Virus record (IMG/VR): IMGVR_UViG_2563366805_000003
Strand: one strand, 5' to 3'
Source: a virus
Lineage: Duplodnaviria; Heunggongvirae; Uroviricota; Caudoviricetes
Length of the DNA: 29,513 bases
The position numbers and the translations under genes were made by a program. Each line of letters begins with the position of its first letter. Positions within the stretch are counted from its first letter, which is position 1. Below the pieces are notes generated by a model, which saw only the letters and a list, made by a program, of their open reading frames with translations, ran no database searches and was not told the origin of the DNA. This document shows positions 1 through 27,952 of the stretch, in pieces.

Positions 1-103
1 CTGGCGCAGTAAACAGCAAAATCAGCAGACGTCTTCTGAACGTGAACTGGAGATGTCTACCGAGGCATTGCGGCGGACGGCCAGAAGAACGGAACGCCAA
101 TAG
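1..103 (+). mobile_element. IS3-family orfA 3' fragment; first 64 nt identical to the IS3 copy at 1741-1804, then diverged
   Basis: Positions 1-64 match 1741-1804 base for base. After a 2-nt difference the frame continues as ...STEALRRTARRTERQ and stops at TAG 101-103, versus ...[18 protein letters not shown] in the intact IS3 OrfA. No orfB follows. Confidence 0.6.
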
Positions 104-113
104 CTGGAGCACC

Positions 114-139
114 TTCTCCCAAACCAACGTTTATGAAAA
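114..139. promoter_or_regulatory. putative invertase crossover site (hix/gix-like 26-bp site)
   Basis: TTCTCCCAAACCAACGTTTATGAAAA has imperfect dyad half-sites around a central AA and matches the recalled hixL sequence at about 20 of 26 positions. It lies 55 bp upstream of the invertase start, the usual place for the invertase-proximal site. This region is also weakly similar to IS3 orfA, so the call is tentative. Confidence 0.4.
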
Positions 140-193
140 TGCAGAAATAACGAGCAAATGGCATCATTCCTGCTTTTGTCAGGGAGATCCACC

Positions 194-748
194 ATGCTTA
201 TTGGCTATGTACGCGTATCAACAAATGACCAGAACACCGATCTACAACGTAATGCGTTGAACTGTGTAGGATGTGAACTGATTTTTGAAGACAAGATAAG
301 CGGTACGAAGTCCGAAAGGCCCGGACTGAAAAAACTGCTCAGGACATTATCGGCAGGTGACACTCTGGTTGTCTGGAAGCTGGACAGGTTAGGGCGCAGT
401 ATGCGGCATCTTGTTACGCTGATAGAAGAGTTGCGCCAGCGTGGCGTGAATTTCCGAAGCCTGACTGACAGTATTGATACCAGTACCCCAATGGGCCGTT
501 TCTTTTTTCATGTCATGGGTGCCCTGGCTGAAATGGAACGAGAACTGATTGTTGAACGAACAAAAGCTGGACTGGAAGCTGCTCGCGCACAGGGACGAAT
601 TGGTGGACGTCGTCCCAAACTTACACCAGAACAATGGGCGCAGGCCGGGCGATTAATTGCATCAGGCGTTCCTCGCCAGAAGGTGGCGATCATCTATGAT
701 GTTGGTATATCGACACTGTATAAGAAGTTTCCGGTCGGAGATAAATGA
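194..748 (+). CDS. pin: serine recombinase, Hin/Gin/Pin-type DNA invertase
   Basis: MLIGYVRVSTNDQNTDLQ... with the catalytic Ser motif, GRFFFHVMGALAEMERELI, and a C-terminal HTH (GRIGGRRPKLT...STLYKK), typical of Pin/Gin/Hin. Start taken at the internal ATG at 194 rather than the ORF-track start at 158. Confidence 0.9.
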   Translation: MLIGYVRVSTNDQNTDLQRNALNCVGCELIFEDKISGTKSERPGLKKLLRTLSAGDTLVVWKLDRLGRSMRHLVTLIEELRQRGVNFRSLTDSIDTSTPMGRFFFHVMGALAEMERELIVERTKAGLEAARAQGRIGGRRPKLTPEQWAQAGRLIASGVPRQKVAIIYDVGISTLYKKFPVGDK

Positions 749-789
749 AACCGTAGCACGTCGTATGCAAGAAGATCGTGCTGCGGTTT
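731..789. repeat. imperfect direct repeat containing a stem-loop, copy A; overlaps the pin stop and may act as its terminator
   Basis: CCGTAGCACG...CGTGCTGCGG forms a 10-bp stem (one wobble pair) followed by TTTATGCTTAT. A similar copy lies at 3017-3068. Confidence 0.4.
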
Positions 790-808
790 ATGCTTATCAC
801 TTAAAGAC

Positions 809-1537
<729 letters not shown>

Positions 1538-1597
1538 TTACCCAGCAATAGTGGACACGCGGCTAAGTGAGTAAACTCTCAGTCAGAGGTGACTCAC

Positions 1598-1897
1598 ATG
1601 ACAAAAACAGTATCAACCAGTAAAAAACCCCGTAAACAGCATTCGCCTGAATTTCGCAGTGAAGCCCTGAAGCTTGCTGAACGCATCGGTGTTACTGCCG
1701 CAGCCCGTGAACTCAGCCTGTATGAATCACAGCTCTACAACTGGCGCAGTAAACAGCAAAATCAGCAGACGTCTTCTGAACGTGAACTGGAGATGTCTAC
1801 CGAGATTGCACGTCTCAAACGCCAGCTGGCAGAACGGGATGAAGAGCTGGCTATCCTCCAAAAGGCCGCGACATACTTCGCGAAGCGCCTGAAATGA
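1598..1897 (+). CDS. insE: IS3 OrfA (transposase N-terminal HTH/leucine-zipper protein)
   Basis: [40 protein letters not shown]... matches the recalled IS3 InsE sequence. The ORF-track start at 1589 is GTG; the ATG at 1598 is used here. Confidence 0.85.
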
Positions 1898-2760
1898 AGT
1901 ATGTCTTTATTGAAAAACATCAGGCTGAGTTCAGCATCAAAGCAATGTGCCGCGTGCTCCGGGTGGCCCGCAGCGGCTGGTATACGTGGTGTCAGCGGCG
2001 GACAAGGATAAGCACGCGTCAGCAGTTCCGCCAACACTGCGACAGCGTTGTCCTCGCGGCTTTTACCCGGTCAAGACAGCGTTACGGTGCCCCACGCCTG
2101 ACGGATGAACTGCGTGCTCAGGGTTACCCCTTTAACGTAAAAACCGTGGCGGCAAGCCTGCGCCGTCAGGGACTGAGGGCAAAGGCCTCCCGGAAGTTCA
2201 GCCCGGTCAGCTACCGCGCACACGGCCTGCCTGTGTCAGAAAATCTGTTGGAGCAGGATTTTTACGCCAGTGGCCCGAACCAGAAGTGGGCAGGAGACAT
2301 CACGTACTTACGTACAGATGAAGGCTGGCTGTATCTGGCAGTGGTCATTGACCTGTGGTCACGTGCCGTTATTGGCTGGTCAATGTCGCCACGCATGACG
2401 GCGCAACTGGCCTGCGATGCCCTGCAGATGGCGCTGTGGCGGCGTAAGAGGCCCCGGAACGTTATCGTTCACACGGACCGTGGAGGCCAGTACTGTTCAG
2501 CAGATTATCAGGCGCAACTGAAGCGGCATAATCTGCGTGGAAGTATGAGCGCAAAAGGTTGCTGCTACGATAATGCCTGCGTGGAAAGCTTCTTTCATTC
2601 GCTGAAAGTGGAATGTATCCATGGAGAACACTTTATCAGCCGGGAAATAATGCGGGCAACGGTGTTTAATTATATCGAATGTGATTACAATCGGTGGCGG
2701 CGGCACAGTTGGTGTGGCGGCCTCAGTCCGGAACAATTTGAAAACAAGAACCTCGCTTAG
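1894..2760 (+). CDS. insF: IS3 OrfB transposase catalytic (DDE) domain; expressed as an OrfAB fusion by -1 frameshift in IS3-family elements
   Basis: [32 protein letters not shown]... with DDE integrase-fold motifs ([27 protein letters not shown]). The ATG overlaps the orfA stop (ATGA). Confidence 0.9.
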
Positions 2761-3016
2761 GCCTGTGTCCATATTACGTGGGTAGGATCAACATACCAGC
2801 CAAGGTGTTCATTACTCCAGAAGGAAACTCAGTAATATCCATTTTGCAATATCTATGAATTATTTGTGAGACGTATATTAATGAACATTGCAAGGGCTCA
2901 CAACTAGTAGTGTTGAGAAATCCATCGGGAAAATGAGGCTAACCCTTTGAATTTACATAGCGCAAAAAGATACCTTTCCTCATAATGTGAGCTAATTTTA
3001 TGTTTCGTTTGATGAT

Positions 3017-3068
3017 CGGGTCGGTCTCGAAACCCGTAGCCACGTCATATGCAAGAACGTGCTACGAC
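3017..3068. repeat. imperfect direct repeat containing a stem-loop, copy B
   Basis: CGGGTCGGTCTCGAAACCCGTAGCCACGTCATATGCAAGAACGTGCTACGAC resembles 731-789. Stem CCGTAGCCACG / CGTGCTACG. Confidence 0.4.
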
Positions 3069-3346
3069 TGGCTGGTGAACTTCCGATAGTGCGAGTATTG
3101 AATGATTTCCAACTGTTATCGATTTTGCGTATTTTTTGCATGAGAGGATTTTTACCTCCTCCCACCGATCCTCCATGGCTTTACGCCAGTGTCTCTGGTC
3201 TGCTATGTGCCAAAAGTAGACATTGCTGACATAAAATATATGATTTGACCAACTACAACCGAAGAATAGTCCAATACATCTTGGGTCTACATCCAACTAG
3301 TTATAGAATCCCGAGTATACATGTTAGTTTTGGACATTCTAATCAC

Positions 3347-3766
3347 ATGAAATATTGCTACCTGATAATTTTAAGCTTGACTATTTCTTCTGCTCAGGCT
3401 GAGACATTTCCCGCCAAGCTAACCTGTAATACGGGTGAACAAATTACTCTTAAAGTTACTGGTCCAGAGCAGCGACTGATCTACACTTCTTCACTCTATG
3501 GAACATTCCATGGATATCTCGATGTATTTAAAGGGTTATCACCTGAGCGTCAATATGAGGTACTTGCCAATATTCATGGAATAGCTCGATATAGGGACAG
3601 CCCGTTACATTTTACTCTCCTAATGAAACGAACCAATGGTGAGATGGATAATGGCTCAATTATCTATCGATATACCTACCTGAAAGACGAGCAACTGATT
3701 GATGAAGAAGGACATTGCAGTCCGATAAAAGATGGCGGATTTATTGAGGGGAGCAAAAGTTACTAA
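3347..3766 (+). CDS. hypothetical secreted protein with N-terminal signal peptide
   Basis: MKYCYLIILSLTISSAQA-ETF is a classic Sec signal with an AQA cleavage motif. Strongly AT-rich. Start at the internal Met of ORF 3245-3766. Confidence 0.55.
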   Translation: MKYCYLIILSLTISSAQAETFPAKLTCNTGEQITLKVTGPEQRLIYTSSLYGTFHGYLDVFKGLSPERQYEVLANIHGIARYRDSPLHFTLLMKRTNGEMDNGSIIYRYTYLKDEQLIDEEGHCSPIKDGGFIEGSKSY

Positions 3767-4081
3767 GGCCAAGCGTATAGTTATCGGTATGCTTACCGTT
3801 TGCAGACCCCACGGCGCTCAGGCAGCCCGCTCCGTGCCAATAGCAGGCATTACTATGGTCTGTTCCGTAACAGTCATTTTTACCAAAGTATATGGTTAGA
3901 ACTATGCCGAAAATGCCCTCATACCATAATTAGAACTAACAATTAATTTTTTAAATTAAAATAGTTTAAAGAGTCATTTTTAATCACTTATTTATCGTGC
4001 TTATAGCTCGAAAGATACACCTTATCATCATCCCCTGTTACAATGTAGGGAGTAGGTCAATAAGATTAGAAGGAGATTTAA

Positions 4082-5548
4082 GTGAAAAAAATCAGTGACG
4101 AACAAATTAATATCGAGGCTCAATCAGGATATAGACCATGGACTATAGATTCTGGTATCGGATTGCTTCCCTTTTCAGAATTAGGTGATCGAGAATTTGA
4201 GTTGCTATGTTATTTGTTAGTAAAGAACGAAATTGAAGATGGAAAGCATAAAAATATATCCTCAATATCTTTAATGCAAGGAGTTTCTGAAAGAGGACGC
4301 GACTGCGTGCTATACCATAACGGTGTTGTAAGTGGTTTAATACAATGTAAAAAAATGCAAGGTAGAATAACTAGACCGCAAGCATTAAGAGAAATAATTA
4401 AATTTTTATTGTTTTCCATTATTGATAATAGTTTGCTTCCCGCTCCTGATTGTTTCGAATATAAGTTGTATGTATCAAATGACATCGCTGAAACTACAAA
4501 CTCACTAATTCATTCTTACTCAACCGAAGTTGAGGTGGAAATAAAGTCTGATACTATCAGTAAGTATATAAAAGATGTTGTATCTGAATACGAGTCATTC
4601 AAAATTTTTGAAAACAGCCTACCAATTAGTAAAGTTATTGATCTTTTGAGACGGATAAATGTAACCGCATCAAATGCAACAGATTTAACCTTGCGAGTTC
4701 ATAAGTATGATTCATTGTTATCATTGTTTTTTAATGTAAAAACTGTAATCGACTTAGAATCTGCAGATAAAGTTATACGTAACGCGCTTGATGACTATGG
4801 TTTAAAATACTTGACCGATGAAGACTTAAAACAACTTCAAATTCGCATTTCAAATACTAAAGAAGAAAATCGAATAAATTTAGGTTTTGTGGATTTCTTT
4901 GGTTATAACAAAGAGTTTTTTAAATCCTTGAAAGGCGAGCCATTTAAACAAGTGATAGAAGCGGTTGCGTCGGTAACATTATCATTAGATAAGTATTTAA
5001 TGGAATTCATAAATAGTAAAATCAATGAGCTAGTTTTTGAAAACGTCACAATAAAATTATTAAATCCAGGGAGGATTCACCCTTTCAGTGTGGGCGTGGT
5101 GGCACCTTACCTATTTCAGAGACTGTCCATTAAAGTCGTCTCAAGAAAGTTGCCAACAGAGTTAGTCACCAAATTTTATGAACAAGCATCTCTGTCCAAA
5201 AAGGAATTAATCGACTCGATAGCAATACAGCTCTTTGAAACAAGCGAAAGAGTTATGAAAGGAGATTTCAGTCAGTTAGTGGGAAATCCAGAAGACATAC
5301 AGTTTAAAAAGAGAATATTCACTCATATACATAATGGATTCAACAGTATAGAAGATGCAAAAACTACTTTTTCTCGAGACATCCAGATTATAATGCCAAC
5401 ATTAGATTTTATAGAAGAAAAAATAGGTGAGCTATTACAAGAAGAGCGTACTGTGGTAATAAAAGACGCCTCTTTTTTGGATAATGATGATGAGATTAAG
5501 AAAATAGCAAAAACGCTGAGTATGATCGAACCCAATCCAGGCGCATAG
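4082..5548 (+). CDS. hypothetical protein, N-terminal Mrr-like (PD-(D/E)xK) restriction-endonuclease catalytic motif plus about 380-aa C-terminal region of unknown function
   Basis: 488-aa ORF with GTG start and AGGAGA RBS 5-10 nt upstream. Residues about 70-95 read ERGRDCVLYHNGVVSGLIQCKK, matching the D...(Q/E)xK pattern of Mrr-type nucleases. Very AT-rich compared with its neighbours. Confidence 0.7.
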   Translation: MKKISDEQINIEAQSGYRPWTIDSGIGLLPFSELGDREFELLCYLLVKNEIEDGKHKNISSISLMQGVSERGRDCVLYHNGVVSGLIQCKKMQGRITRPQALREIIKFLLFSIIDNSLLPAPDCFEYKLYVSNDIAETTNSLIHSYSTEVEVEIKSDTISKYIKDVVSEYESFKIFENSLPISKVIDLLRRINVTASNATDLTLRVHKYDSLLSLFFNVKTVIDLESADKVIRNALDDYGLKYLTDEDLKQLQIRISNTKEENRINLGFVDFFGYNKEFFKSLKGEPFKQVIEAVASVTLSLDKYLMEFINSKINELVFENVTIKLLNPGRIHPFSVGVVAPYLFQRLSIKVVSRKLPTELVTKFYEQASLSKKELIDSIAIQLFETSERVMKGDFSQLVGNPEDIQFKKRIFTHIHNGFNSIEDAKTTFSRDIQIIMPTLDFIEEKIGELLQEERTVVIKDASFLDNDDEIKKIAKTLSMIEPNPGA

Positions 5549-5941
5549 AATAACTGTAGTTTTGGTATTTTTATTTTTAGTAGCTGTGTTAGTGTAATTG
5601 CACTAACACACTCCTTGAGCTGCTCCCCGTTGCTTAGGACACTTCAATGTTAGTCATGAAGTAGTGAACTTCCGCTCATCGCTCATAACAGACATAAACT
5701 TCAGTTATGGCATAAAGGTATGCATGCTGGGTGGGGAAAGTATGAAGGAAAAGAAGACTGCTGCGCCGTTTGTCGTCACGTTTATCTTCATTGGCTATGC
5801 AAGTCGTAATACAAGGTGGGACAAAACTGAGACACATAAGGCCTCGCAATGGCTTGCAAGGCTTTACATGTTTTGATGTGGTGGGACGTGTGAGCGCAGT
5901 GTTGATGGGGTAATGCTTTGAATTAGAAGTGGATTCTTATA

Positions 5942-5987
5942 ATTCGTAATGCGAAGGTCGTAGGTTCGACTCCTATTATCGGCACCA
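5942..5987 (+). tRNA. tRNA-Thr 3' fragment (46 nt, anticodon loop to CCA); att-site remnant, not an intact tRNA
   Basis: ATTCGTAATGCGAAGGTCGTAGGTTCGACTCCTATTATCGGCACCA matches the recalled 3' part of enterobacterial tRNA-Thr(CGU) (thrW type). The preceding 30 nt do not form the acceptor or D arm. Confidence 0.75.
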
Positions 5988-6004
5988 TTCAAACATCTCC
6001 CCAA

Positions 6005-6088
6005 GTCTACTAAAGTCTTTCAAAACCCCTTATAATCCGCGTATTAAAGCCCCGTTCGTCTTTTGACGTCTACTAAAGTCCCTCAAAA
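6005..6088. repeat. two direct repeats GTCTACTAAAGTC(Y)(Y)TCAAAA upstream of int; possible integrase arm-type sites
   Basis: Copies at 6005-6025 and 6068-6088, between the tRNA fragment and the int start. Confidence 0.35.
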
Positions 6089-6152
6089 TCTACGGTCAGA
6101 TGGGGGTACTTATGGGGGTATTTGCTGTTCGGTTTAGTGGAGGTACCCCCAA

Positions 6153-7367
6153 GTGAAACTCAATGCCCGTCAAATAGACACAGCCAAGCCAAAAGAGAAG
6201 GCTTACAAGCTGGCCGATGGTGGCGGTTTGTATCTCTTGGTAAAACCTAATGGAGGTAAATACTGGCGACTTAAATATCGTGTAGCTGGTAAAGAGAAGC
6301 TATTGGCACTAGGTGTGTATCCTGAGGTTACTCTAGCCGATGCTCGGGCAAAACGTGAAGATGCGAAAAGAGGTATCGCTGGTGGTATCGATCCGATGGA
6401 AGCGAAACGAGAGGAAAAGATTGCCCGGGAAACGCAGTTAAACAACACCTTCAAAGATATTGCCCTTGAGTGGCACAGCAGCAAATTAAAAAAATGGTCT
6501 GCTGGTTATGCTTCAGACATCCTCGAAGCCTTCAACAAAGATGTGTTCCCTTACATTGGCAAAAAACCAATCGCCGAAATCAAACCACTTGAACTTCTGA
6601 ATGTGCTGCGGCGCATCGAGGGGCGCGGTGCTACAGAAAAAGCCAAAAAAGTGAGGCAGCGGTGCGGGGAAGTTTTCCGCTATGCAATAGTCACTGGTCG
6701 CGCAGAGTATAACCCTGCACCAGACCTTACTAGCGCGATGCAAGGCCATGAATCTAATCATTACCCTTTCCTTACAGCCAAAGAATTACCTGATTTTTTC
6801 AAGGCATTGTCCAGTTACTCAGGAAGCGCATTGGTTGTTATGGCGGCTCGTCTACTGATTATCACCGGCTTGCGAACTGGCGAACTACGTGGCGCATTAT
6901 GGGATGAAATTGATTTCAACAAGGCTATATGGGAGATACCCGCTTCACGTATGAAAATGCGGCGGCCTCATATTGTGCCATTGTCTGAGCAGGCTCTTTC
7001 GCTTATTGGGAAGATTAGAGAAATAACAGGCAATTACCCTCTTATGTTTCCCGGGCGCAATGATCCAAGGAAAACAATGAGTGAGGCCAGCATAAACCAA
7101 GTGTTTAAGCGCATTGGCTACGCTGGACGTGTAACTGGTCATGGGTTCCGACACACTATGAGCACGATTTTGCATGAGCAGGGCTATAACACCGCGTGGA
7201 TAGAAACGCAGCTCGCTCACGTTGATAAGAACTCAATTCGTGGCACATACAACCATGCGCAATATCTGGATGGAAGGCGGGAGATGCTTCAATGGTATGC
7301 CGACTATATGGATTCTCTCGAGCATGGCGGAAATGTGGTGCATATGGTGTTTGAAAAACACGCATGA
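6153..7367 (+). CDS. int: tyrosine site-specific integrase, P4-like family
   Basis: GTG start with GGAGGT RBS. The N-terminus MKLNARQIDTAKPKEKAYKLADGGGLYLLVKPNGGKYWRLKYR is typical of P4-type integrases. C-terminal catalytic region contains HGFRHT and AHVDKN...RGTYNHAQY. Confidence 0.9.
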   Translation: MKLNARQIDTAKPKEKAYKLADGGGLYLLVKPNGGKYWRLKYRVAGKEKLLALGVYPEVTLADARAKREDAKRGIAGGIDPMEAKREEKIARETQLNNTFKDIALEWHSSKLKKWSAGYASDILEAFNKDVFPYIGKKPIAEIKPLELLNVLRRIEGRGATEKAKKVRQRCGEVFRYAIVTGRAEYNPAPDLTSAMQGHESNHYPFLTAKELPDFFKALSSYSGSALVVMAARLLIITGLRTGELRGALWDEIDFNKAIWEIPASRMKMRRPHIVPLSEQALSLIGKIREITGNYPLMFPGRNDPRKTMSEASINQVFKRIGYAGRVTGHGFRHTMSTILHEQGYNTAWIETQLAHVDKNSIRGTYNHAQYLDGRREMLQWYADYMDSLEHGGNVVHMVFEKHA

Positions 7368-7510
7368 AACAACTGGACAAGTATACAGAGGTTTACTAAA
7401 GTATAGGGGAGTAGATTGATAAAAACTCACAGAGGATTGCTATTTAACAGTTAGCCCTGGAGAAGGGCAATCGCTCTTTTACAAACGAAGGTGTATTGAG
7501 CCTTCTACGT

Positions 7511-7573
7511 CGCTGACAAAGCGGAATGTTCTTTAACAGGCTTTGGCGCTGACAAAGCGCAATTGTTCTTTAA
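7511..7573. promoter_or_regulatory. tandem direct repeats CGCTGACAAAGCG(G/C)AAT(T)GTTCTTTAA upstream of the alpA-like gene; candidate operator
   Basis: Two copies, 7511-7536 and 7547-7573. A 14-bp-stem hairpin follows at 7676-7708 (AAGACCGCAATATG ttttt CATATTGTGGTCTT). Confidence 0.35.
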
Positions 7574-7795
7574 AACTACTGGATGTCACGCCTAATAGCG
7601 TGATCCTGCCGAAATGCAGGGTAGCTCTACCCTTGTGGAGCAAACAAACCAAAACAATCTGACTATCTTTTATAAAAGACCGCAATATGTTTTTCATATT
7701 GTGGTCTTTGGCGTATTCGACATTTGACGCAAATAAAACTCTCGCCATTCGTTGCAGGAGGGGGTTATTGCGTCATTAGTACAGGATATTAATAA

Positions 7796-7999
7796 ATGGC
7801 TAATTACAATTCATTAATTCGTCTCTCTGAAGTTCAAAGGCGAACTGGTTATAGCAAAGCATGGATTTATCGTCTTATTAGTCAGGGGAGGTTCCCTAAA
7901 CAGGTAAAAATTGGAAGTCGGGCAATTGCTTTTGTTGAGTCTGAAATAGATGAATGGATTGAGAAGTGTATATTAGAATCTAGAGACGAGGTGGCCTGA
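7796..7999 (+). CDS. alpA: AlpA-family (prophage CP4-57 regulatory / Vis-like) DNA-binding protein
   Basis: 67 aa. LSEVQRRTGYSKAWIYRLISQGRFPKQVKIGSRAIAFVESEIDEWI is the characteristic AlpA HTH signature. Sits directly downstream of int. Confidence 0.75.
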   Translation: MANYNSLIRLSEVQRRTGYSKAWIYRLISQGRFPKQVKIGSRAIAFVESEIDEWIEKCILESRDEVA

Positions 8000-8430
8000 T
8001 GGAAAAGAAAAACCGCCCATTACAGGCGGCTAATTCAGATATTCGTGTATCTGATGTTACGCCCCTTACAAAATCCCCTCAAGCACCAAAGCGCACACCG
8101 AAAAAGCATCGTGCCAGAGTCTATATGCTGCGTACTGGTATAGAGGGATGGACAGAAAATGACATTCTTCGCTACTGCCGTCTGTCTTCTGGTCGTAACT
8201 ATGCAACAGAGTTAGAACGCCAGCTTGGAATCACTCTGGAGCGTATCGACGAAAAGAATCCTGATGGTATCGGAACACACCTTCGCTACCGTTTCTCCTG
8301 CCGTGGTGATGTTCTGAAAGTGATCACTCATATTAACCATCTTGCGAACATAAATGATCACAACGGACTTTCTCAGCAGGAAATTGCCGACATTCTGAAA
8401 CTCTACCCGGACGCGTTTAACGCCGCCTAA
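7999..8430 (+). CDS. hypothetical protein
   Basis: 143-aa ORF whose ATG overlaps the alpA stop (translational coupling). Confidence 0.55.
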   Translation: MEKKNRPLQAANSDIRVSDVTPLTKSPQAPKRTPKKHRARVYMLRTGIEGWTENDILRYCRLSSGRNYATELERQLGITLERIDEKNPDGIGTHLRYRFSCRGDVLKVITHINHLANINDHNGLSQQEIADILKLYPDAFNAA

Positions 8431-8442
8431 CGGAGACTGAAA

Positions 8443-9276
8443 ATGAACATCGAAAAAAGCAGATTAATTTCTGAGGCCGCCCCTCATCTGAACGCCTCTC
8501 TGGGCACAATTAACGGTAATGAATTTGCCGCAATTGTCCCGGTTATTCCTGGTCATATCGGTGGGCGTGAAACCAATATTGTTAGCGCAAAAGCGTTACA
8601 CAAAGCGTTGGGCGTGGGAAAAGACTTCTCTACATGGATCACTGATCGCATCTCTGAATATGACTTCACCATTGGGCACGATTACTCAGTCCATAAAACA
8701 ATTTCCCCAAATTTGGGGAAAAGCCCGAATGGCGCGGCTTACAGCAAGATAAAGCACTCTGGCAGACCCGGCAAAGACTATCTGTTAAGTGTCGGAATGG
8801 CGAAAGAACTGGCAATGATCGAACGCAATGATCAGGGTCGCGCTATCCGCCGTTATTTCATCCAGTGCGAGGAAGAATTACAGCGTAGCGTGCCTGAAAT
8901 CGCCGCCCGCTATCGTCGCCAGCTAAAAGCCCGTATTAGTGCCGCAAACAACTTTAAGCCAATGTGCGATGCGCTGAATATGGCCCGTGCCGAGATGGGG
9001 AAAACGACGCAGCAACACCACTACACAAACGAGAGCAATATGATTTCTCGTATCGTTCTTGGTGGGCTAACTGCTAAGCAGTGGGCGCGGATAAATGGCT
9101 ATTCTGGCGAACCTCGCGACCATATGAACGCAGAACAGCTTGAGCACCTCTCATATCTCGAAAGCACCAATATCACGTTAATTGATATGGGCATGGAATA
9201 TGAGCAGCGCAAAGGAGAACTCACCCGCCTGTCGCAACGCTGGCTCGCCAAGCGTCTGGAGGCGCTCAATGTCTAA
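8443..9276 (+). CDS. phage antirepressor-like protein (AntA/AntB-type N-terminal domain)
   Basis: 277 aa. N-terminal NIVSAKALHKALGVGKDFSTWITDRISEYDFTIGHDY and central DYLLSVGMAKELAMIERNDQGRAIRRYFIQCEE resemble AntA-type domains, from recalled motifs only. Confidence 0.5.
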   Translation: MNIEKSRLISEAAPHLNASLGTINGNEFAAIVPVIPGHIGGRETNIVSAKALHKALGVGKDFSTWITDRISEYDFTIGHDYSVHKTISPNLGKSPNGAAYSKIKHSGRPGKDYLLSVGMAKELAMIERNDQGRAIRRYFIQCEEELQRSVPEIAARYRRQLKARISAANNFKPMCDALNMARAEMGKTTQQHHYTNESNMISRIVLGGLTAKQWARINGYSGEPRDHMNAEQLEHLSYLESTNITLIDMGMEYEQRKGELTRLSQRWLAKRLEALNV

Positions 9277-9448
9277 GCCAACAGGAATACCACAACCACA
9301 AAAACGCTACAAAGATGCCCACGGAGCACTCGTTACTGTCGAAAGCGTGTCTCACAACCGAGTGACGTTTTATCGCGACGGGTATCAATCGCCATGCGTA
9401 CAACCGCTGGCGCGTTTCATGAAGGAGTTCGCGGAGGTTAACCAATGA
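9269..9448 (+). CDS. hypothetical small protein
   Basis: [59 protein letters not shown]. Start overlaps the stop of the preceding gene. Confidence 0.45.
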   Translation: MSKPTGIPQPQKRYKDAHGALVTVESVSHNRVTFYRDGYQSPCVQPLARFMKEFAEVNQ

Positions 9449-10182
9449 TACCCGTCCAGAAGAAGACATTTTCACTGGCTGGTATGTCGCCAAAATCCAG
9501 CAATATGACGGCAAAGTCAGGCATTAATACAGCAGATACAAGCAAAGTTTATCATTTGCTGGTGGTCGGAACGGATGCCTTAACCATACCAGAAATCTCG
9601 GGCGATGATATTAGCATTGAGAAGGTCAGCGGCTGCGCCAGAGAATTTCTGGTCGTAGATGATGTCTTCCGCTCGTGTAGTGACTCCACAAAAACATTCG
9701 TCCACGCGCGTGACGTTAACGAAATGAGCGCGATGTACTGTGCATCTGGTGCTTCCAATAGCGAGTTTTCGGAGTCCATAAAAAAGAGCTTGCCGTTATG
9801 CGGCAACACGGTTTATGGTTATAAGGCACCTCATAAAACGGGTGCCGGGATTGGCGTCCTGAAAATTCTGAAGGCGACATATGACGCGCCGAGCGTCTTT
9901 TTTTATGTCGTAGGTCTGACTCACCCATTTTTTGGGCGTTGGTGTATAATCCAGCGCCTTTGTCAATCAATGGTGGCTCAGGCGGGGGCTTCTTCGGAAG
10001 CGCCGGTATCCTTCAGAGCCGGTTACGCCAACCCTGTCTGGGCTACCACCAGCGAAATTGGCGTTTCCGGTGGTAGCGTAACCTGCTATCTGAAGGAGGC
10101 TGCCACATGCTGGCTACTACCCCTACCCAAAAACCGCAATTTATCTGGATTATCGCCGCAGTTCGCCGCGATTGCCCGATAA
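9445..10182 (+). CDS. hypothetical protein; 3' extent uncertain
   Basis: ATGA start-stop overlap with the previous gene supports a real 5' end. The last third overlaps a promoter-like TATAAT (9946-9951) and hairpins, and overlaps the next ORF by 75 nt, so it may be non-coding leader. Confidence 0.35.
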
Positions 10183-10301
10183 TTACCGCCAAAATTCATC
10201 ATATTGCTGCCGAGTCTGAACGCGATGCTCGCCGTTCTCTGGTGCGCGATCACGTCTGCTTTTTTGCTGGTCGTATCCGCATGGAGGTGGCACATGATTA
10301 A
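10107..10301 (+). CDS. hypothetical small protein
   Basis: Strong RBS AAGGAGG 12 nt upstream; 64 aa. Confidence 0.5.
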   Translation: MLATTPTQKPQFIWIIAAVRRDCPIITAKIHHIAAESERDARRSLVRDHVCFFAGRIRMEVAHD

Positions 10302-10512
10302 AACCTACGATGTGCATATGGATCCCCTCGAACGCACAAGCCAGATCATCACACTGACAGAAGTGATTAATGACATTCTGGTGAGCAACTCTCCCTCACG
10401 AGACGAAAAACTGAAGGCGTTACTCGCGATATTGGATCTCGCCGTTCGTGACGTTCATTTCCTGCTGGAAGGTGGACAAATGCCATGCAAAACGGGGGCA
10501 ACCAATGAATAA
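10288..10512 (+). CDS. hypothetical small protein
   Basis: Internal ATG of ORF 10204-10512 preceded by GGAGGTG; overlaps the previous stop. Confidence 0.5.
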   Translation, partial: WHMIKTYDVHMDPLERTSQIITLTEVINDILVSNSPSRDEKLKALLAILDLAVRDVHFLLEGGQMPCKTGATNE

Positions 10513-10699
10513 CTCAATTAATACCCCTCGCCTTACGTCCGCACTTCAATTAATCGAGCAAGCAGCGGCTGTCCTGCTTGCTGTCAGTCTTTCGGCTGAA
10601 GAGATGGACGCTGCTGATGTCGTGGATGCGATTAAAGCGTGCTCATCTTTGGTTAACGATGCCCGTGCAGAGCTGGTAATTCTTGGGGGTGAAAAATGA
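10505..10699 (+). CDS. hypothetical small protein
   Basis: MNNSINTPRLTSALQLIEQAAAV...; start overlaps the previous gene's end. Confidence 0.45.
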   Translation: MNNSINTPRLTSALQLIEQAAAVLLAVSLSAEEMDAADVVDAIKACSSLVNDARAELVILGGEK

Positions 10700-10959
10700 A
10701 TATCAACTTAATTTATCGTCATCCGTGTGAGCTGGAAATTGAATCATTGCTGGGGCGCGAAGAGCCATATCCAGACACATTCACTCCCGCAGATTGCGCG
10801 ACTGAACGGCTTACCAGAGCGCGCACAGGTCTGGTTCATGTGATGAATGAGATTATTCCCTCGGTGGGAGGGGAACAGGCGACAGTAATCAATAGCTGGC
10901 TACAAAAAGTCACCTCCCTGATAGATATCAGTTTAATCGATGTGGAGAGTGCGAAATGA
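10696..10959 (+). CDS. hypothetical protein
   Basis: 87 aa; ATGA overlap with flanking genes. Confidence 0.5.
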   Translation: MNINLIYRHPCELEIESLLGREEPYPDTFTPADCATERLTRARTGLVHVMNEIIPSVGGEQATVINSWLQKVTSLIDISLIDVESAK

Positions 10960-11177
10960 CCAACATCCAGCTCATTGAAGCGCAATGTCGCATCGAACAG
11001 GTTCAGACTGTTTTAGGGTTCTGGCTTGAAGGGGCCAGCCCAAGCAACAGAGACAAGTTAATGATTGGCGCGGTTATGTCACTGCTCAATGGCGTACCAG
11101 AAGCTATTCAGGAAGCAGACGAATTGTTGGGCAAATATGAGTTACAGAATCATTCAGGCGAGGCGAAACATGAATAA
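10956..11177 (+). CDS. hypothetical protein
   Basis: 73 aa; ATGA overlap with flanking genes. Confidence 0.5.
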   Translation: MTNIQLIEAQCRIEQVQTVLGFWLEGASPSNRDKLMIGAVMSLLNGVPEAIQEADELLGKYELQNHSGEAKHE

Positions 11178-11772
11178 TTTCTTAACTTTCCATGCAGAAG
11201 CAACGCCTGACGGCGTAAACATCATGCACCGCAGCAACGATGGCATGACAGAACGCGTTGAGACCGTCTCATATATTGATGCCGTAAATCGTCTGGATGC
11301 CGGGGATTATGACGATAAACCAGATGAAGGTATGTCAATACATCTCGCTATAGCCGATGGCGGCAACCAGGGATATTTCGATTACACATCACAGCATAAC
11401 GTCATTATGTGGAGATGGCTGATCGCAACAGTATTCATGCTGGAAATGAGAGAGGAAAACGGCACTGTCAGCATCATTGATGATACTGGCAATCCTTCCG
11501 AAGTGGCTGTTTATTCCAACGGCATCGTTGCCATGCCGCTGTATCCAGTAGCAGAGCGCCTCGCTATGGCAAACAACATTGAGGGAGCGATGATAGAACG
11601 TTTTGGCATCGAGTCTGGCACAGAACGCTCCATCATTTTCTACAGAGCCATGATGGATGTGGAACAAGGAGCACTGACTCCATTTGGTCGTGAAACGCTT
11701 GCTGAACTTCACAACAGCTTTATAGCTGAACTGAATGAAAACGGCATGCCATCGGAACCAGTGACGCACTGA
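11170..11772 (+). CDS. hypothetical protein
   Basis: Internal ATG (MNNFLTFHAEATPDG...) preceded by GAGG; 200 aa. Confidence 0.5.
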   Translation: MNNFLTFHAEATPDGVNIMHRSNDGMTERVETVSYIDAVNRLDAGDYDDKPDEGMSIHLAIADGGNQGYFDYTSQHNVIMWRWLIATVFMLEMREENGTVSIIDDTGNPSEVAVYSNGIVAMPLYPVAERLAMANNIEGAMIERFGIESGTERSIIFYRAMMDVEQGALTPFGRETLAELHNSFIAELNENGMPSEPVTH

Positions 11773-12124: not shown

Positions 12125-12488
12125 AAATGCAGAAATGGCGCTTAGCTCCGCAATCGGAGAGCAGGTGGCAAAGATTGCTGGTGCTGTGTGGATTCATAAC
12201 CTTCATTCTACTGGTGAAGAGAAAATGGCAATTCAGACGCCAGAGGGACGCACCATTACTACATCTCTGAAGCCGTCAGATGTTTGTGATCTGATTTGCG
12301 CATTCATGTACCCAGCAATGAGGACTGTCCACGGCGATAAGTGGAAACTTGCGACAACCGCTGAATTTGATATGTGGCTAAACAATGATGGCATGCTGAC
12401 TGATTACGGAATAACCAAGTGGCAGATGCTGGTTAGCCATATCGCAAACGCTATAGACCACGTGGGGTACGGTGATGCGAAACATTGA
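12117..12488 (+). CDS. hypothetical protein
   Basis: 123-aa ORF overlapping the previous and next genes. Confidence 0.5.
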   Translation: MRENAEMALSSAIGEQVAKIAGAVWIHNLHSTGEEKMAIQTPEGRTITTSLKPSDVCDLICAFMYPAMRTVHGDKWKLATTAEFDMWLNNDGMLTDYGITKWQMLVSHIANAIDHVGYGDAKH

Positions 12489-15231
12489 TCTTATCCGTCA
12501 GGTTATCAGTGCGTCTGAAAACAACTGGCCTCATGTGCTGGGCTGCCTGAACATAAATGTCCCTGACTCTCCGCGCCGTCATGCTCCCTGCCCTGCATGT
12601 GGGGGCAAAGATCGATTCCGGTTCGATGACAACGGGCGCGGTAGCTTCATCTGTAATCAGTGCGGCGCTGGTGATGGGCTGGATTTAATTAAACGCGTAA
12701 ATAACTGCGACACAACAGAGGCGGCGCTTCTTGCCGCTGATGTTCTGGGTATTGATTACCGGACAACGGAAACACCAGAAGCCACCAGCCAGAAACGGGA
12801 ACAACTGGAAACCGAGCGCCAGCGACGCGAACAGGAGCGCCTGAAAAGGGCAGAGAAGGACGAACAACAAAGACGGGATACGTTTTCCCGTCAGTTTGAT
12901 GACATGCGCAGAAAGGCTGTAAACGGCAAATCTGATTATCTGGTTGCGAAAGGGGTAGGTGATTTTACATTCCCCGTGTTGCCCGATGGATCTCTGTTGC
13001 TGGCGCTGGTGGATAAATCCGGCGCAGTAACAGCAGCACAGACTATTACCTCACATGGTGAAAAAAGACTCCTGACAGGTTCAGCAAAGCGAGGGGCATA
13101 TCACGCCATAAACGCACCAGAAACAACACAGAGCATCTTAATCGCAGAAGGGCTGGCAACGGCATTATCTGCCCATTTAATGCGTCCAGAGGCGCTGACA
13201 GTGGCGGCGATTGATGCCGGGAACCTGTTATATGTCGCCCAGGTACTGCGGGATAAATTTCCTTCAGCACAAATCATCATTGCTGCGGATAACGACCACA
13301 GCGAAGGAAGACAAAACACGGGGAGAATAGCAGCAGAAAAAGCAGCTTTATCTGTTTCTGGATGGGTGGCATTACCCCCGACAGATCACAAAGCAGACTG
13401 GAATGATTACCACCAAAAACACGGCATTAAATGCGCCACAGAAGCGTTCAATAAGTCAATGTACCAACCACAGGGTAATGGCGTGAAACAGGAGCCACAG
13501 ACCATTGAGGGAAGCGATTTTAAGGTTATGGATACCGATCCACTGAAACCAAGAATAGAAAGCCGCGAGGATGGTATTTATTGGGTATCTCCGAGAGCTG
13601 ACAGCCAGAGTGGAGAAATCATCAATAACGAAAGCTGGTTATGTTCTCCGTTAAGCGTTATCGGTACTGGCAGAGACGATAAAGACCAGTATCTCATTCT
13701 TCGCTGGCTGTCGTTTGGTTCTGAAACGCCGACAACCGCTGCCATTCCACTGGCTGATATTGGTGAACGTGAAGGATGGCGCACACTTAAAGCTGGTGGG
13801 GTAAATGTCACGACCAAAAGCAGCCTCAGAGCAATACTGGCAGACTGGCTACAACGCAGTGGCTCTCGTGAATTGTGGCGTGTTGCTCATGCCACTGGCT
13901 GGCAATGCGGAGCGTACATCATGCCTGATGGGGAAATCATCGGAACACCTGAAAATCCTGTGCTGTTCAGCGGGAGAAGCTCAGCCGCAGCCGGATATAC
14001 CGTCTCAGGGAGCGCGAAAAGCTGGCGTGATAACGTGGCGCGTCTGGCCTTTGGTAACTATTCAATGATGACCGGGATCGGCGCAGCACTGGCAGCGCCA
14101 TTGATTGGGCTGGTGGGCGCTGACGGGTTCGGCATTCATTTCTATGAGCAGTCGAGCGCAGGTAAGACCACCACGGCAAACGTGGCGAGCAGCTTATACG
14201 GCAACCCTGATTTACTGCGGCTGACGTGGTACGGAACCGCGCTGGGGCTGGCAAATGAGGCCGCCGCCCACAATGACGGACTAATGCCGCTTGATGAAGT
14301 TGGTCAGGGCGCTGATCCTGTCAGCGTTTCACAGTCTGCCTATGCGTTATTTAACGGTGTAGGGAAACTGCAAGGCGCTAAAGATGGTGGAAACCGGGAT
14401 CTAAAACGCTGGCGTACAGTGGCAATCAGCACCGGAGAAATGGATTTAGAAACATTTATCGCTACTTCCGGGCGAAAAACCAAAGCCGGGCAACTGGTGC
14501 GACTGCTGAATATTCCGTTGAGTAAAGCAGTACGCTTTCACGATTACCAGAACGGAAAACAGCACGCAGACGCACTGAAAGACGCTTACCAGCATCACCA
14601 CGGCGCGTCCGGGCGTGAGTGGATTAAATGGCTGGCAGACCACCAGCAACAGGCTATTAAAACCGTTCGTGATTGCGAAAGCAGATGGAGAAGCCTGATC
14701 CCATCCGATTATGGTGAGCAGGTTCACCGTGTAGCCGCGCGATTTGCCATTCTGGAGGCCGCATTGTTGTTAGGCGAGGTTGTAACAGGCTGGGATGCTC
14801 AGACATGCCGTGATGCGATACAGCACAGCTATAACGCATGGTTGCGCGAGTTCGGCACAGGTAACAAAGAGCATCAGCAGATTATTGAACAAACGGAGGC
14901 ATTTCTTAATGCCTATGGGCTTAGCCGTTTTGCACCATTTCCATACAGCCCGGCAGATTTGCCCATCAAAGATTTAGCCGGATACCGTCAGCGTGGAGAA
15001 CATGACGAAAGCCCAATGATTTTCTACACATTCCCGGCCACATTTGAAAAGGAGATCGCATGTGGTTTCAACGCAAAACAGTTTGCTGAAGTGTTGAAAA
15101 AAGCCGGGATGCTAACCCCACCAAACAGCGGTCGTGGATACCAAAGAAAATCACCACGTATTCAGGGACGACAAATAAACGTTTATGTACTCAATTACCA
15201 GCCAGGAGATTATAACTCATCTGAAGAATGA
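12472..15231 (+). CDS. primase-helicase (phage P4 alpha-like): zinc-binding primase N-terminus plus P-loop NTPase/helicase C-terminus
   Basis: 919 aa. Zinc finger CPACGGKDRFRFDD...FICNQCGAGDGLDLI is typical of P4 alpha / PICI Pri-Rep primases. Walker A-like GIHFYEQSSAGKTT further on. Iterons follow the stop immediately. Confidence 0.85.
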   Translation: MMRNIDLIRQVISASENNWPHVLGCLNINVPDSPRRHAPCPACGGKDRFRFDDNGRGSFICNQCGAGDGLDLIKRVNNCDTTEAALLAADVLGIDYRTTETPEATSQKREQLETERQRREQERLKRAEKDEQQRRDTFSRQFDDMRRKAVNGKSDYLVAKGVGDFTFPVLPDGSLLLALVDKSGAVTAAQTITSHGEKRLLTGSAKRGAYHAINAPETTQSILIAEGLATALSAHLMRPEALTVAAIDAGNLLYVAQVLRDKFPSAQIIIAADNDHSEGRQNTGRIAAEKAALSVSGWVALPPTDHKADWNDYHQKHGIKCATEAFNKSMYQPQGNGVKQEPQTIEGSDFKVMDTDPLKPRIESREDGIYWVSPRADSQSGEIINNESWLCSPLSVIGTGRDDKDQYLILRWLSFGSETPTTAAIPLADIGEREGWRTLKAGGVNVTTKSSLRAILADWLQRSGSRELWRVAHATGWQCGAYIMPDGEIIGTPENPVLFSGRSSAAAGYTVSGSAKSWRDNVARLAFGNYSMMTGIGAALAAPLIGLVGADGFGIHFYEQSSAGKTTTANVASSLYGNPDLLRLTWYGTALGLANEAAAHNDGLMPLDEVGQGADPVSVSQSAYALFNGVGKLQGAKDGGNRDLKRWRTVAISTGEMDLETFIATSGRKTKAGQLVRLLNIPLSKAVRFHDYQNGKQHADALKDAYQHHHGASGREWIKWLADHQQQAIKTVRDCESRWRSLIPSDYGEQVHRVAARFAILEAALLLGEVVTGWDAQTCRDAIQHSYNAWLREFGTGNKEHQQIIEQTEAFLNAYGLSRFAPFPYSPADLPIKDLAGYRQRGEHDESPMIFYTFPATFEKEIACGFNAKQFAEVLKKAGMLTPPNSGRGYQRKSPRIQGRQINVYVLNYQPGDYNSSEE

Positions 15232-15256
15232 GCTTCTTCATGTGCGTAGAAAAGGT

Positions 15257-15367
15257 GTTGGTTCAGTTGGTTCAGTTGGTTCAATTTGTAAAGAGTATTG
15301 TTTTATAAGGATTTTATTCTTTTTATTGAACCAACACTGAACCAACAACACGGTATTTTGAACCAAC
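15257..15367. repeat. iteron cluster (putative replication origin): 3 tandem GTTGGTTCA (10-bp period), AT-rich spacer, 3 inverted TGAACCAAC
   Basis: GTTGGTTCA at 15257, 15267 and 15277. TGAACCAAC at 15327, 15338 and 15359. Spacer is ATTTGTAAAGAGTATTGTTTTATAAGGATTTTATTCTTTTTAT. Starts 26 bp after the primase stop. Confidence 0.7.
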
Positions 15368-15815
15368 ACAATGTGACTGAATTGATGCGCACAACACCTG
15401 GCTGGCATCAGAGAGTGTTTTACGAGACTTTCGTAAAATCCTGTGTACAAGGGCGTGACGTTTTTGAAAGTGAGCACTACGAAATTTTCGTAGTTCAAAA
15501 AACAGCCTCTGAGAAGTTGTTATGCCTGTTCAGCAAACCATCCGCATAGCTGATCGCGAATCAAATTACCAATGGAGCCAGAAGCAAGGGCAGAACTGAA
15601 AAGCGCCTGCCGTGAAGAGTAATGCGACACCATAAATATAGTTTTTAGAGTCCATAAAAAACCTGTCAAAACCTGACACACAGAACGATGCCACCAGCTA
15701 CTGAGCGGTGGCATTTTTTTGTGCTATTTGTTTCATATTTTGCAATTATGATGATGAATATTGCGATTTGTGAAACTATAATAACTGTTGTTTTATACAG
15801 TTCTAAGGGGGCGTT

Positions 15816-15993: not shown

Positions 15994-16455
15994 ATGGAAC
16001 TAAAATTTATTGATAACCCTGTGCGATTACAGGCCTTTCTTAACGAGCCAGGCAATACCGAAAATATTGTTGAGCCGGGGCACACGTACTACATCAAGCC
16101 TGATGCGGTATATCTCGGCATCTACGAAGGATTAGTGCTGGCTGGCGTTCATGAAGTGCGTAACTTCTGGCATAGCGTTGTTGAATGCCATGCGGTGTAC
16201 GACCCCGGATTCCGTGGTGAATATGCACTGCAAGGACATCGATTATTCTGCAAATGGCTTCTCGAAAACTCACCATTCCTTAACAGCATCACTATGGTTC
16301 CTGACACCACGAAATACGGACGGGCAATTATCCGTTTGCTTGGCGCTACCCGTGTTGGTCACCTTGATGATGCTTATATCAGATGTGGTAAACCCGTCGG
16401 CGTAACGCTTTATCAGTTAACTCGGCAACAATATAAGGAATTCAGCGAATGTTAA
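15994..16455 (+). CDS. hypothetical phage-like protein; first gene of the putative ejection-protein cassette
   Basis: 153-aa ORF overlapping the start of the next gene. Confidence 0.5.
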   Translation: MELKFIDNPVRLQAFLNEPGNTENIVEPGHTYYIKPDAVYLGIYEGLVLAGVHEVRNFWHSVVECHAVYDPGFRGEYALQGHRLFCKWLLENSPFLNSITMVPDTTKYGRAIIRLLGATRVGHLDDAYIRCGKPVGVTLYQLTRQQYKEFSEC

Positions 16456-17126
16456 TTACCCATATAGCTCATAAACATCTCAATCGTGCCGTATACGAAA
16501 AAGGCGGTGATGGTGGTGCCTCTAAAGCTCAGGCGAAGGCCCAGCAGCAGGCAATTGATTTGCAGCGCGAGCAGTGGAATACTGTGATGAATAATCTCAA
16601 GCCGTATGCAGAAGTCGGATTGCCTGCTTTACAACAACTGCAAGGACTGATGACTCTGGAAGGGCAGAATAAAGCCGCGAATGATTTCTTTGGTTCTGGT
16701 TTATATAAAACACAGGCAGATCAGGCCCGTTATCAGAACCTTGTCTCAGCAGAAGCTACCGGGGGGCTTGGCTCAACAGCTACCAGTAACCAGTTATCTT
16801 CCATTGCGCCCATGCTTTATAACAATTGGCTTAGTGGGCAAATGCAAAATTATGGAAACCTGCTAAATGTCGGGATGAATGCGGCATCAGGGCAGGCAAC
16901 AGCAGGGCAAAACTACGCCAATAATACCGGGCAACTCTTGCAGGGGCTTGGCGCTATTCGTGCAGGTCAGGCGCAGCAGCCATCCAGTCTTGCGCGTGGT
17001 ATTGGTGGGGCGGCATCAGGCGCTTTAGCGGGTGCGCAACTTGGTTCCGTTGTTCCGGGTATAGGTAATGTCGCCGGGGCTATTGGTGGTGGGCTTATTG
17101 GTCTTGTTGGGGGGCTTGGATTCTAA
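16449..17126 (+). CDS. putative DNA-ejection / internal virion protein, small (gp7-like by size and position), Gly-rich hydrophobic C-terminus
   Basis: 225 aa. C-terminus GAASGALAGAQLGSVVPGIGNVAGAIGGGLIGLVGGLGF is a glycine-zipper-like segment. Stop overlaps the next ATG. Confidence 0.45.
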   Translation: MLITHIAHKHLNRAVYEKGGDGGASKAQAKAQQQAIDLQREQWNTVMNNLKPYAEVGLPALQQLQGLMTLEGQNKAANDFFGSGLYKTQADQARYQNLVSAEATGGLGSTATSNQLSSIAPMLYNNWLSGQMQNYGNLLNVGMNAASGQATAGQNYANNTGQLLQGLGAIRAGQAQQPSSLARGIGGAASGALAGAQLGSVVPGIGNVAGAIGGGLIGLVGGLGF

Positions 17127-18445
17127 TGGCGACATGGCAACTTGGCGGGCTGCCTAGCATGGCACCGCAAAATGATAATGCTCCTCGTTCTTCCGTTCCT
17201 CAGCCTGTGCAGTATCAGCAGCAGCCAAACGTAGGTTTAATGGCGCTACAGGGGCTAAGAGGCGTTGCTGAGATTAATCAGCAGGCGCAAATTTCCCAGC
17301 AGCTAAAAGAATATCAGGCACGGTTGGGTAGTGCGGTAGCTAATAATGATCGTGTTGGCGTGCAGAAGTTAATGGCCCAGTATCCCCAGTTTATGGCTGA
17401 TTCTCAAAAACAGATGGGATTCATTGATGCTGAGCAAAATCGGCAGACCGCTGACGCTGCCATGAATCTGCGTCTTGCGTCACAAACTGGAGATCCACTG
17501 ACCATGCAGAAGGCCATTCAGCAGGCAAATCCAGTATTACAGCGATTTGGTCTTCCTGCTGAAGAGGTTTATCAGTCTTGGCAGAATGACCCACAGGAAT
17601 TCAACAGAATCACTGACCTCATCCACCTCCATGCTGATCCAAATAGTTACTTTAGTGTTCAAGAGAAGCAGCAAGGGCAGAGTATTGCACAGCAGAACGC
17701 AGATACATCTGCATATAATGCTCAGGTTAATGCGGAGCAGGGTAATCGGCGTCTCGATATGGAGCAGTTCAAAGTCATATCCGATAACCAACTACGCACG
17801 AGAGAAATGGTTCTGAAAGCACGACTTGGACGTGCTCAAAATGACATCGAGAGAGACAAGCTCAATGCTGAACTGAGCAAGGTACAGCAGGCGAAAGTGG
17901 AGAAGATGAACGATAAAATTAATACTGTTGCAGGTAATATCGACTCCTTGAACTCTGCGCTTGAAGTGGGTCATGAACTGGCGGGAATTGTAGGGAAACA
18001 TCCTTCGGCCGTTACCCGTTCGCAGAACTATAACCCCCTGACGCTGGGGTTTGGATTCCTCCCTGATGTAGCAGAAGACACACGAAGCCTACGCGCCAAA
18101 GCTGATGAATACAACCTAAAGGTTATTCTGCCTAGCCTAAAAGGTACTTTTGGCTCTAACCCAACCGAAGGGGAAAGGGCTGCCCTTATGCAATCTCAAA
18201 ATGGCATTAAGTCAGCAACCAGCAATGAGGCATTTTTGCGAGAGTTGAATAAAGCGCAGGACGTAATTATTCGAATGCAGAAACGACAGATTGCCGGGCT
18301 CGGTATTCCTGTAACCAAATCTAAGGACGAAGAAACTGATACCAAAATGCTGTTGCAGGATCCTTCACTGGTTAAGGATTATGTGACCGCACATGGCTAT
18401 CTGCCGGAAAGTTACTATCAGGCAAAACTTAAGGGATGGCAATGA
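17126..18445 (+). CDS. putative DNA-ejection / internal virion protein, middle (gp20-like by size), Gln-rich
   Basis: 439 aa, Q-rich with coiled-coil-like stretches. Translationally coupled on both sides. Confidence 0.45.
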   Translation: MATWQLGGLPSMAPQNDNAPRSSVPQPVQYQQQPNVGLMALQGLRGVAEINQQAQISQQLKEYQARLGSAVANNDRVGVQKLMAQYPQFMADSQKQMGFIDAEQNRQTADAAMNLRLASQTGDPLTMQKAIQQANPVLQRFGLPAEEVYQSWQNDPQEFNRITDLIHLHADPNSYFSVQEKQQGQSIAQQNADTSAYNAQVNAEQGNRRLDMEQFKVISDNQLRTREMVLKARLGRAQNDIERDKLNAELSKVQQAKVEKMNDKINTVAGNIDSLNSALEVGHELAGIVGKHPSAVTRSQNYNPLTLGFGFLPDVAEDTRSLRAKADEYNLKVILPSLKGTFGSNPTEGERAALMQSQNGIKSATSNEAFLRELNKAQDVIIRMQKRQIAGLGIPVTKSKDEETDTKMLLQDPSLVKDYVTAHGYLPESYYQAKLKGWQ

Positions 18446-24848: not shown

Positions 24849-24894
24849 CTGAACCAACACCTTTTTGCTTATCTATATAATCTGAGAGGCAGAA

Positions 24895-27272: not shown

Positions 27273-27952
<680 letters not shown>

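Follow-up and report, generated by a model that had tools for sequence, protein, structure and literature searches.

The question raised by the first lines of this sequence is whether a phage DNA-inversion switch has been remodelled by an insertion sequence, or whether the two only meet at the edge of an assembly. The window, by which we mean the whole stretch of 29,513 nucleotides analysed here (IMG/VR virus record IMGVR_UViG_2563366805_000003, Caudoviricetes), opens with 64 nt of IS3 sequence and reaches an invertase gene of the Pin type within its first 200 nt. In the first-pass annotation the IS3-like DNA was taken to continue, in a diverged form, almost to a hix/gix-like crossover site, and it was suggested that the invertase may have been orphaned or its switch rewired. 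According to our analysis, everything that can be verified at this locus is the e14 Pin system and is already known, while the IS3 "remodelling" of the switch rests on 64 nt at the edge of a draft contig and cannot be confirmed. The e14 Pin system has been studied since the 1980s.

The crossover site and the Pin invertase

The 26-bp site TTCTCCCAAACCAACGTTTATGAAAA is found at positions 114–139 of the + strand, 54 nt before the ATG of pin (194). Its two half-sites of 12 bp form an imperfect dyad on either side of a 2-bp core, with the inner half-site at 114–125 on the side of the P segment, the AA core at 126–127, at which strand exchange would take place, and the outer half-site at 128–139 on the side of pin. 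The resemblance to hixL recorded in the first pass, about 20 of 26 positions, is correct (20/26), and the identity to the hix, gix, cix and mix sites ranges from 16 to 20 of 26; the match to the published e14 pixR (PMC3241671 Table 3, Din-family sites) is, however, complete (26/26), as is the match to the e14 pixR in the K-12 genome (NC_000913, L015 4606–4631). Judged by its sequence, the site is e14 pixR more than it is hix-like.

With a weight matrix trained on hix, gix, cix, mix and bix sites only, the Pin sites having been left out, positions 114–139 score 28.6 bits, compared with 20.0 bits for the top of 300 composition-matched random windows, which places the site well above chance. The runner-up among the real positions of the 29.5-kb window scores 6.8 bits. 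Since nothing else exceeds this value, the matrix scan yields no partner crossover site inside the window, and hence none downstream of pin within it. The same 26 bp are also the end-point of the inversion that distinguishes the sister isolates 0H24 and 0H26.

The pin gene (194–748, + strand) encodes a Fis-dependent serine DNA invertase of 184 aa, with the Resolvase domain (PF00239, E = 2.6e-52) followed by HTH_7 (PF02796, E = 4.6e-13), a catalytic Ser9 and the motif QAGRL at residues 150–154. The protein is identical to K-12 PinE at 174 of 184 positions (94.6%) and is readily matched to Gin (PDB 3UJ3, E = 1.9e-93), with which the QAGRL motif aligns, so the earlier impression of an apparently intact Pin-type invertase holds. 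The leader of the gene, presumably containing its promoter (140–193, + strand), is 100% identical to that of 0H24 and identical to that of K-12 at 47 of 54 positions; a simple promoter scan detected no convincing strong sigma-70 consensus upstream of pin.

A weak candidate for the recombinational enhancer, proposed by analogy, may be placed in the 5' part of pin (216–278, + strand), where a pair of 15-mers resembling the Fis consensus have their centres at 223 and 271, with 48 bp between them and about 97 bp to the crossover core; the consensus is very degenerate and is matched 12 times in 380 nt. This region hardly differs from the corresponding part of K-12 pinE, and its position is analogous to that of the Hin enhancer, which lies 99 bp from hix (PMC3798978); the residues contacting Fis are conserved in the invertase family (PMC3798978).

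A tail-fibre exon between the IS3 fragment and pixR

The first 64 nt of the window (+ strand) are, as had been reported, an exact copy (100%) of positions 1741–1804, that is, of nt 209–272 of IS3, which are internal to orfA. The next 49 nt had been described as a diverged IS3-like orfA tail. This description does not survive comparison: bases 65–113 are identical to IS3 positions 1805–1853 at only 15 of 49 positions in register, and their best local alignment with IS3 is not significant, 7% of shuffled sequences aligning equally well or better. On the minus strand they instead open exon A, as we call one of the variable tail-fibre exons of the invertible P segment, and supply its first 49 nt; they are 100% identical (49/49) to 0H24 L003 9002–9050, which lies within a gene annotated as a phage tail protein. 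From base 64 on, the window is matched at 100% by many complete E. coli genomes, in which this stretch is likewise annotated as phage tail protein. Read on the minus strand, 65–113 gives ...GAPAIGVPFFWPSAAMP, and the exon reading runs ...GLGEGAPAIGVPFFWPSAAMP and on into NTVIDSW...

The + strand frame entering from orfA is indeed open as far as a TAG at 101–103, as the first-pass annotation stated, but the stop is fortuitous, being located in a fibre exon that is encoded by the opposite strand. The diverged orfA tail is therefore rejected as tail-fibre DNA read on the wrong strand. For the same reason the DNA beyond the crossover site can be called IS-derived only from 49 nt beyond it, the nearest 49 nt being the fibre exon, and the exact-then-diverged pattern, which had been attributed to recombination between IS3 copies, is a breakpoint into non-IS DNA. 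More generally, an open reading frame that continues out of an IS fragment can be phage DNA of the opposite strand, and caution is warranted when such frames are interpreted.

The inversion switch in related prophages

Between base 64 and the point where IS3 is inserted, the window is 99.9% identical to the prophage of 0H24 (L003), and the similarity resumes after IS3. The flanks of the switch in 0H24 and 0H26 are 100% identical over 7.2 kb on one side and 99.99% identical over 9.7 kb on the other, and the two isolates differ only by an inversion between the inverted TTCTCCCAAACCAAGGTTTTCGAGAG, which is the published pixL, and pixR. The mismatches are restricted to the outer half-sites, which stay in place. 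In these relatives the invertible segment carries two variable fibre exons and two tail-fibre-assembly (Caudo_TAP) genes, as it does in e14. On the strength of these matches, positions 65–748 of the window are best described as the end nearest the invertase of a Pin/P-segment switch of the e14 type, carried by an E. coli prophage with a Mu-like tail.

The course of inversion is established for the Hin/Gin/Cin/Pin family. By analogy, Pin dimers would bind pixR (114–139) and the inverted pixL, about 1.87 kb away; the enhancer in the 5' part of pin, occupied by Fis, would assemble the invertasome; and strand exchange would follow at the central AA. The inversion would then swap the variable C-terminal exon, together with its chaperone gene, that is fused to the constant fibre gene, and this is the outcome seen between 0H24 and 0H26. 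The e14 P segment is present in both orientations within clonal cultures (PMC4272514), and it is inverted by PinE and, in trans, by the orphan paralogue PinQ (PMC12529663). Through PinQ, Pin systems have recently been linked to anti-phage defence.

The source scaffold upstream of the window

Positions 1–11453 of the window are 100% identical to the draft scaffold KE137155.1 (GCA_000408565.1; L017 11453–1), in which a run of 7,766 N lies directly upstream of window base 1 (L017 11454–19219). No genes are called inside this run, so it belongs to the original record, and its position means that a WGS contig begins with window base 1.

The sequence beyond the gap (L017 19220–20645) is 100% identical to 0H26. 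It contains the first 233 nt of a chaperone (tail-fibre-assembly) gene, a complete variable exon A, a pixL matching at 26/26 and inverted relative to pixR, and the constant fibre region, with an intact fibre ORF of 273 aa identical to that of 0H26. The suggestion that the invertase is orphaned is not supported by this arrangement, as pixL, the full variable exon and the intact fibre gene are all present across the gap. The fibre exons and the second, inverted crossover site that the first-pass annotation proposed to seek upstream have thus both been found, on the far side of 7,766 N from pixR, which goes most of the way towards refuting the first-pass reading; the two sides may be continuous.

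In the coordinates of KE137155.1 the distance from pixL to pixR is about 8.5 kb, including the gap, whose size is an estimate. The relatives would lead one to expect a gap of about 1.05 kb, so the estimate is about 6.7 kb larger, and the gap may hide extra DNA. The far contig ends inside the chaperone gene, 80 nt before a module that is conserved among prophages (L004 7905). An ending at a repeat boundary was considered for this contig and is not supported, because the conserved chaperone module begins 80 nt past the contig end. Within the scaffold the exon-A start occurs twice, next to pixL with the full exon and next to pixR as a stub of 49 nt, an arrangement at odds with a single simple segment. 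This double attachment is consistent with a culture of mixed orientation; a duplication would also explain it.

Origin of the joint between IS3 and the fibre exon

The joint at 64/65 lies at nt 272 of IS3, an internal position away from any inverted repeat, and base 64 (G) is common to IS3 and the fibre sequence, which amounts to a microhomology of 1 nt. We consider that the joint is probably a construct of the assembly graph, and on that view the switch has not been remodelled by IS3. The region would be hard to assemble, because the invertible segment would occur in both orientations in the culture and IS3 is a multi-copy repeat.

The first base by which pixR can be told from pixL is the C at 128. 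The IS3 piece is 64 nt long, and the fibre sequence together with the inner half-site and the core, from 64/65 to 127, measures 63–64 nt. The stretch 64/65–127 is therefore the full extent of a unipath of k = 64/65 specific to the junction of exon A with pixR, which favours an origin in the assembly graph; a biological breakpoint would have no reason to fall at a distance of one k-mer (63–64 nt) from where pixR becomes distinguishable. Other draft assemblies likewise have contigs that end at the pixR site. The joint of IS3 nt 272 with the fibre sequence is absent from 5,426 complete E. coli genomes and from the collections of genome and metagenome contigs that were scanned for exact matches, and neither the ORFs across the junction nor the hypothetical OrfA fusion had a match in an exact protein look-up.

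Several observations speak against a purely artefactual joint. Reads spanning a joint are a prerequisite for a strict de Bruijn assembler, and a joint of this kind would therefore require a step outside the graph. The foreign piece comes from the IS3 located 1.7 kb downstream and has the same orientation, and the resulting 1804/65 permutation is what a tandem duplication or a circle would leave. The excess size of the scaffold gap and the position of the far contig end, short of the conserved module, also count against an artefact.

The joint may alternatively have arisen by a real tandem duplication or amplification of a 1,740-bp unit, 65–1804, comprising the fibre stub, pixR, pin, the 3' fragment of the GIY-YIG gene and IS3 nt 1–272. 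We regard this as unlikely. The 1804/65 junction is exactly the novel junction that such a duplication would create, and nothing beyond the IS3 copy of the window is needed for it; illegitimate recombination at the 1-nt microhomology (G), at a time when exon A adjoined pixR, would suffice, and it might have been seeded by aberrant replication from the left end of IS3. The attachment of the exon-A start to pixL as a full exon and to pixR as a stub would follow without any mixture of orientations, closure of a cycle would explain why the contig begins k nt ahead of the joint, and the duplication would also account for an oversized gap. The gap predicted in this way is 2,723 + 1,740 × (n − 2) nt, n being the total number of pin copies, which gives 6,203 nt for n = 4 and 7,943 nt for n = 5 against the 7,766 nt estimated. 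The fit is, however, obtained with four to five copies only, and tandem duplications are unstable. The joint is present in no other genome searched, and the end of the far contig inside the chaperone gene is left unexplained. Moreover, the location of the breakpoint one k-mer from the first pixR-specific base would have to be a coincidence, the probability of which is well under 1%.

If the duplication were real, the strain would carry at least two copies of pin and a third pix site, and an ordinary P segment, able to flip independently, would stay with the upstream copy. That the source strain harbours the 1.74-kb amplification, with several pin copies and a switch of three sites (pixL, pixR1 and pixR2), appears to us rather doubtful. 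Such a switch would allow alternative inversions, one of which would join the constant fibre gene to the 49-nt stub while flipping a copy of pin.

It is similarly improbable, in our estimate, that a deletion or some other illegitimate event brought a second, 3'-truncated IS3 (nt 1–272) up against the fibre exon, this IS3 possibly belonging to a larger insertion within the P segment. The switch would then be broken and pin effectively orphaned, able to act only in trans, as PinQ and PinR do, and it might be read through from the IS3 orfA promoter. IS-mediated decay of the same exon does exist: in ECONIH5 an IS26 end adjoins exon A 74 nt from pixR. Orphan Pin paralogues are known to work in trans (PMC12529663), no + strand terminator was predicted between the orfA fragment and pin, and the gap, some 6.7 kb longer than a normal P segment would leave, could accommodate such an insertion. 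On the other hand, a joint at an internal position of IS3 is not a product of transposition, and a simple deletion running from an upstream IS3 to nt 50 of exon A would have removed the rest of that exon, while the full exon A, pixL and the intact fibre gene persist across the gap. The coincidence of one k-mer applies here as well, and the joint is unique among the collections searched.

Two further explanations were rejected: a transposition joint, as the breakpoint at nt 272 is no IS terminus; and Pin-mediated recombination at a pseudo-site in IS3, as 62 nt separate the joint from the crossover core and nothing in IS3 resembles a site (the top other hit in the window being the one at 6.8 bits). 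An IS3 polymorphism giving rise to a single-k-mer unitig of nt 209–272 is not supported, as the apparent variants were ordinary IS3 copies with chance matches in their flanks.

The assembly-edge origin that we prefer also carries a practical caution: the first bases of a draft contig ought not to be given a biological meaning where they border a scaffold gap, and this applies with most force next to an invertible segment and a multi-copy IS. Should the joint prove real, it would be one more case of a prophage switch decaying or being duplicated in association with an IS, and of local interest only.

Comparison with other inversion systems

The closest known system is that of e14 in K-12 (pinE, pixL/pixR, stfP/stfE, tfaP/tfaE). 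Besides the full identity of pixR and the near-identity of Pin given above, the pixL of the source scaffold and of the relatives is identical to the published one, and the layout is the same, pin being preceded by a pix site at a distance of about 54 nt, and the fibre exons and chaperones lying in a segment of about 1.8–1.9 kb. There are, however, several differences. The exon next to pixR in the window is a different allele from K-12 stfE, the place of K-12 mcrA downstream of pin is taken by a GIY-YIG gene, here split by IS3, and a complete Mu-like baseplate and tail module is present in the relatives of the window prophage. The latter is located beside a CP4-6-like element and not at icd, and the source assembly has no more than 49 nt of the segment joined directly to pixR.

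With the Gin/G system of Mu, Cin/C of P1, Min of p15B and Hin/H of Salmonella (the Din family) the locus shares the recombinase family and the 12-nt half-sites around an AA core, while the sequence of its site is pix-specific. The output, alternative C-termini of a tail fibre, is shared with Gin, Cin and Min; Hin, in contrast, controls a flagellin promoter from a gene inside its segment, whereas the pin of the window lies outside the segment, like the genes for Gin and Cin. If the segment were truly broken, a likeness could also be drawn to PinQ and PinR of the cryptic prophages Qin and Rac, invertases without a substrate of their own. PinQ is only 38% identical to PinE (PMC12529663), and the pin of the window differs from both paralogues in having an intact cognate pixR, and a pixL in the same scaffold.

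The strain ECONIH5 (NZ_CP026202.1) offers a parallel of another kind, being 100% identical to the window over 64–800, which includes pin and pixR, and having exon A cut near pixR by an IS. There the interruption is a canonical terminal inverted repeat of IS26 in a closed genome, in contrast to the internal IS3 position at a draft contig edge in the window. The ECONIH5 locus (L002 7208–8076), with exon A cut 74 nt from pixR by the IS26 end, represents an independent and real truncation that leaves pin without its segment.

Other features of the window

The intact IS3 (1533–2790, + strand, 1,258 bp) has all the features of a complete element of the IS3 group of the IS3 family: the length, imperfect terminal inverted repeats, orfA (1589–1897) and orfB (1894–2760), with HTH_Tnp_1 and rve domains, and a 3-bp target duplication, ACA. 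It is 99.84% identical to the IS3 of strain E4, the differences being confined to nt 200 and 543. In strain E4 the IS3 is located elsewhere, between pin and the same GIY-YIG gene.

The gene split by IS3 in the window is a LEM-3-like GIY-YIG gene (PF22945) on the minus strand, and it occupies the place of mcrA in K-12 e14. Its 3' part (C-terminal 241 codons) is found at 809–1532 and its 5' remnant at 2791 to about 2842, collinear with the intact gene of 774 nt in 0H24. The junction of IS3 with the GIY-YIG gene was not found in the 5,426 complete E. coli genomes, and the other searches for this junction were also empty. The metagenome scaffold ERZ28664506 scaffold_7696 (L010, ENA), 99.8–100% identical to the window, joins position 1528 to 2829 and so is missing both IS3 and, around the insertion point, some 40 nt of the GIY-YIG gene; it may be a deletion variant or the result of an imprecise loss of IS3.

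Further downstream, a block of 20.9 kb (5997–26876) is absent from 0H24 and 0H26, which are otherwise 99.9% identical. It encodes a tyrosine integrase (6153–7367), AntA (8443–9276), a primase/DUF927 protein (12472–15231), the P22-type ejection proteins gp7 (16449–17126) and gp20-like (17126–18445), a 908-aa protein with an SLT domain at the position of gp16 (18436–21162) and a PRiA4_ORF3 protein (25780–26322). The block looks like a P4-like integrative satellite carrying podovirus ejection-protein genes. An inverted repeat of 55 nt (15250–15304 and 24811–24865, 96% complementary), made of units of the GTTGGTTCA type, brackets about 9.5 kb with the ejection-protein genes, and a weaker inverted pair lies alongside (15333–15375 and 24751–24793). 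These repeats could be an array of binding sites or delimit another invertible or recombining segment.

The remainder of the window (26876–29513) is a module of a CP4-6-like cryptic prophage with the ykfI/yafW toxin–antitoxin pair, RadC, the antirestriction gene yafX and ykfF, and most genomes that carry this module have two copies of it.
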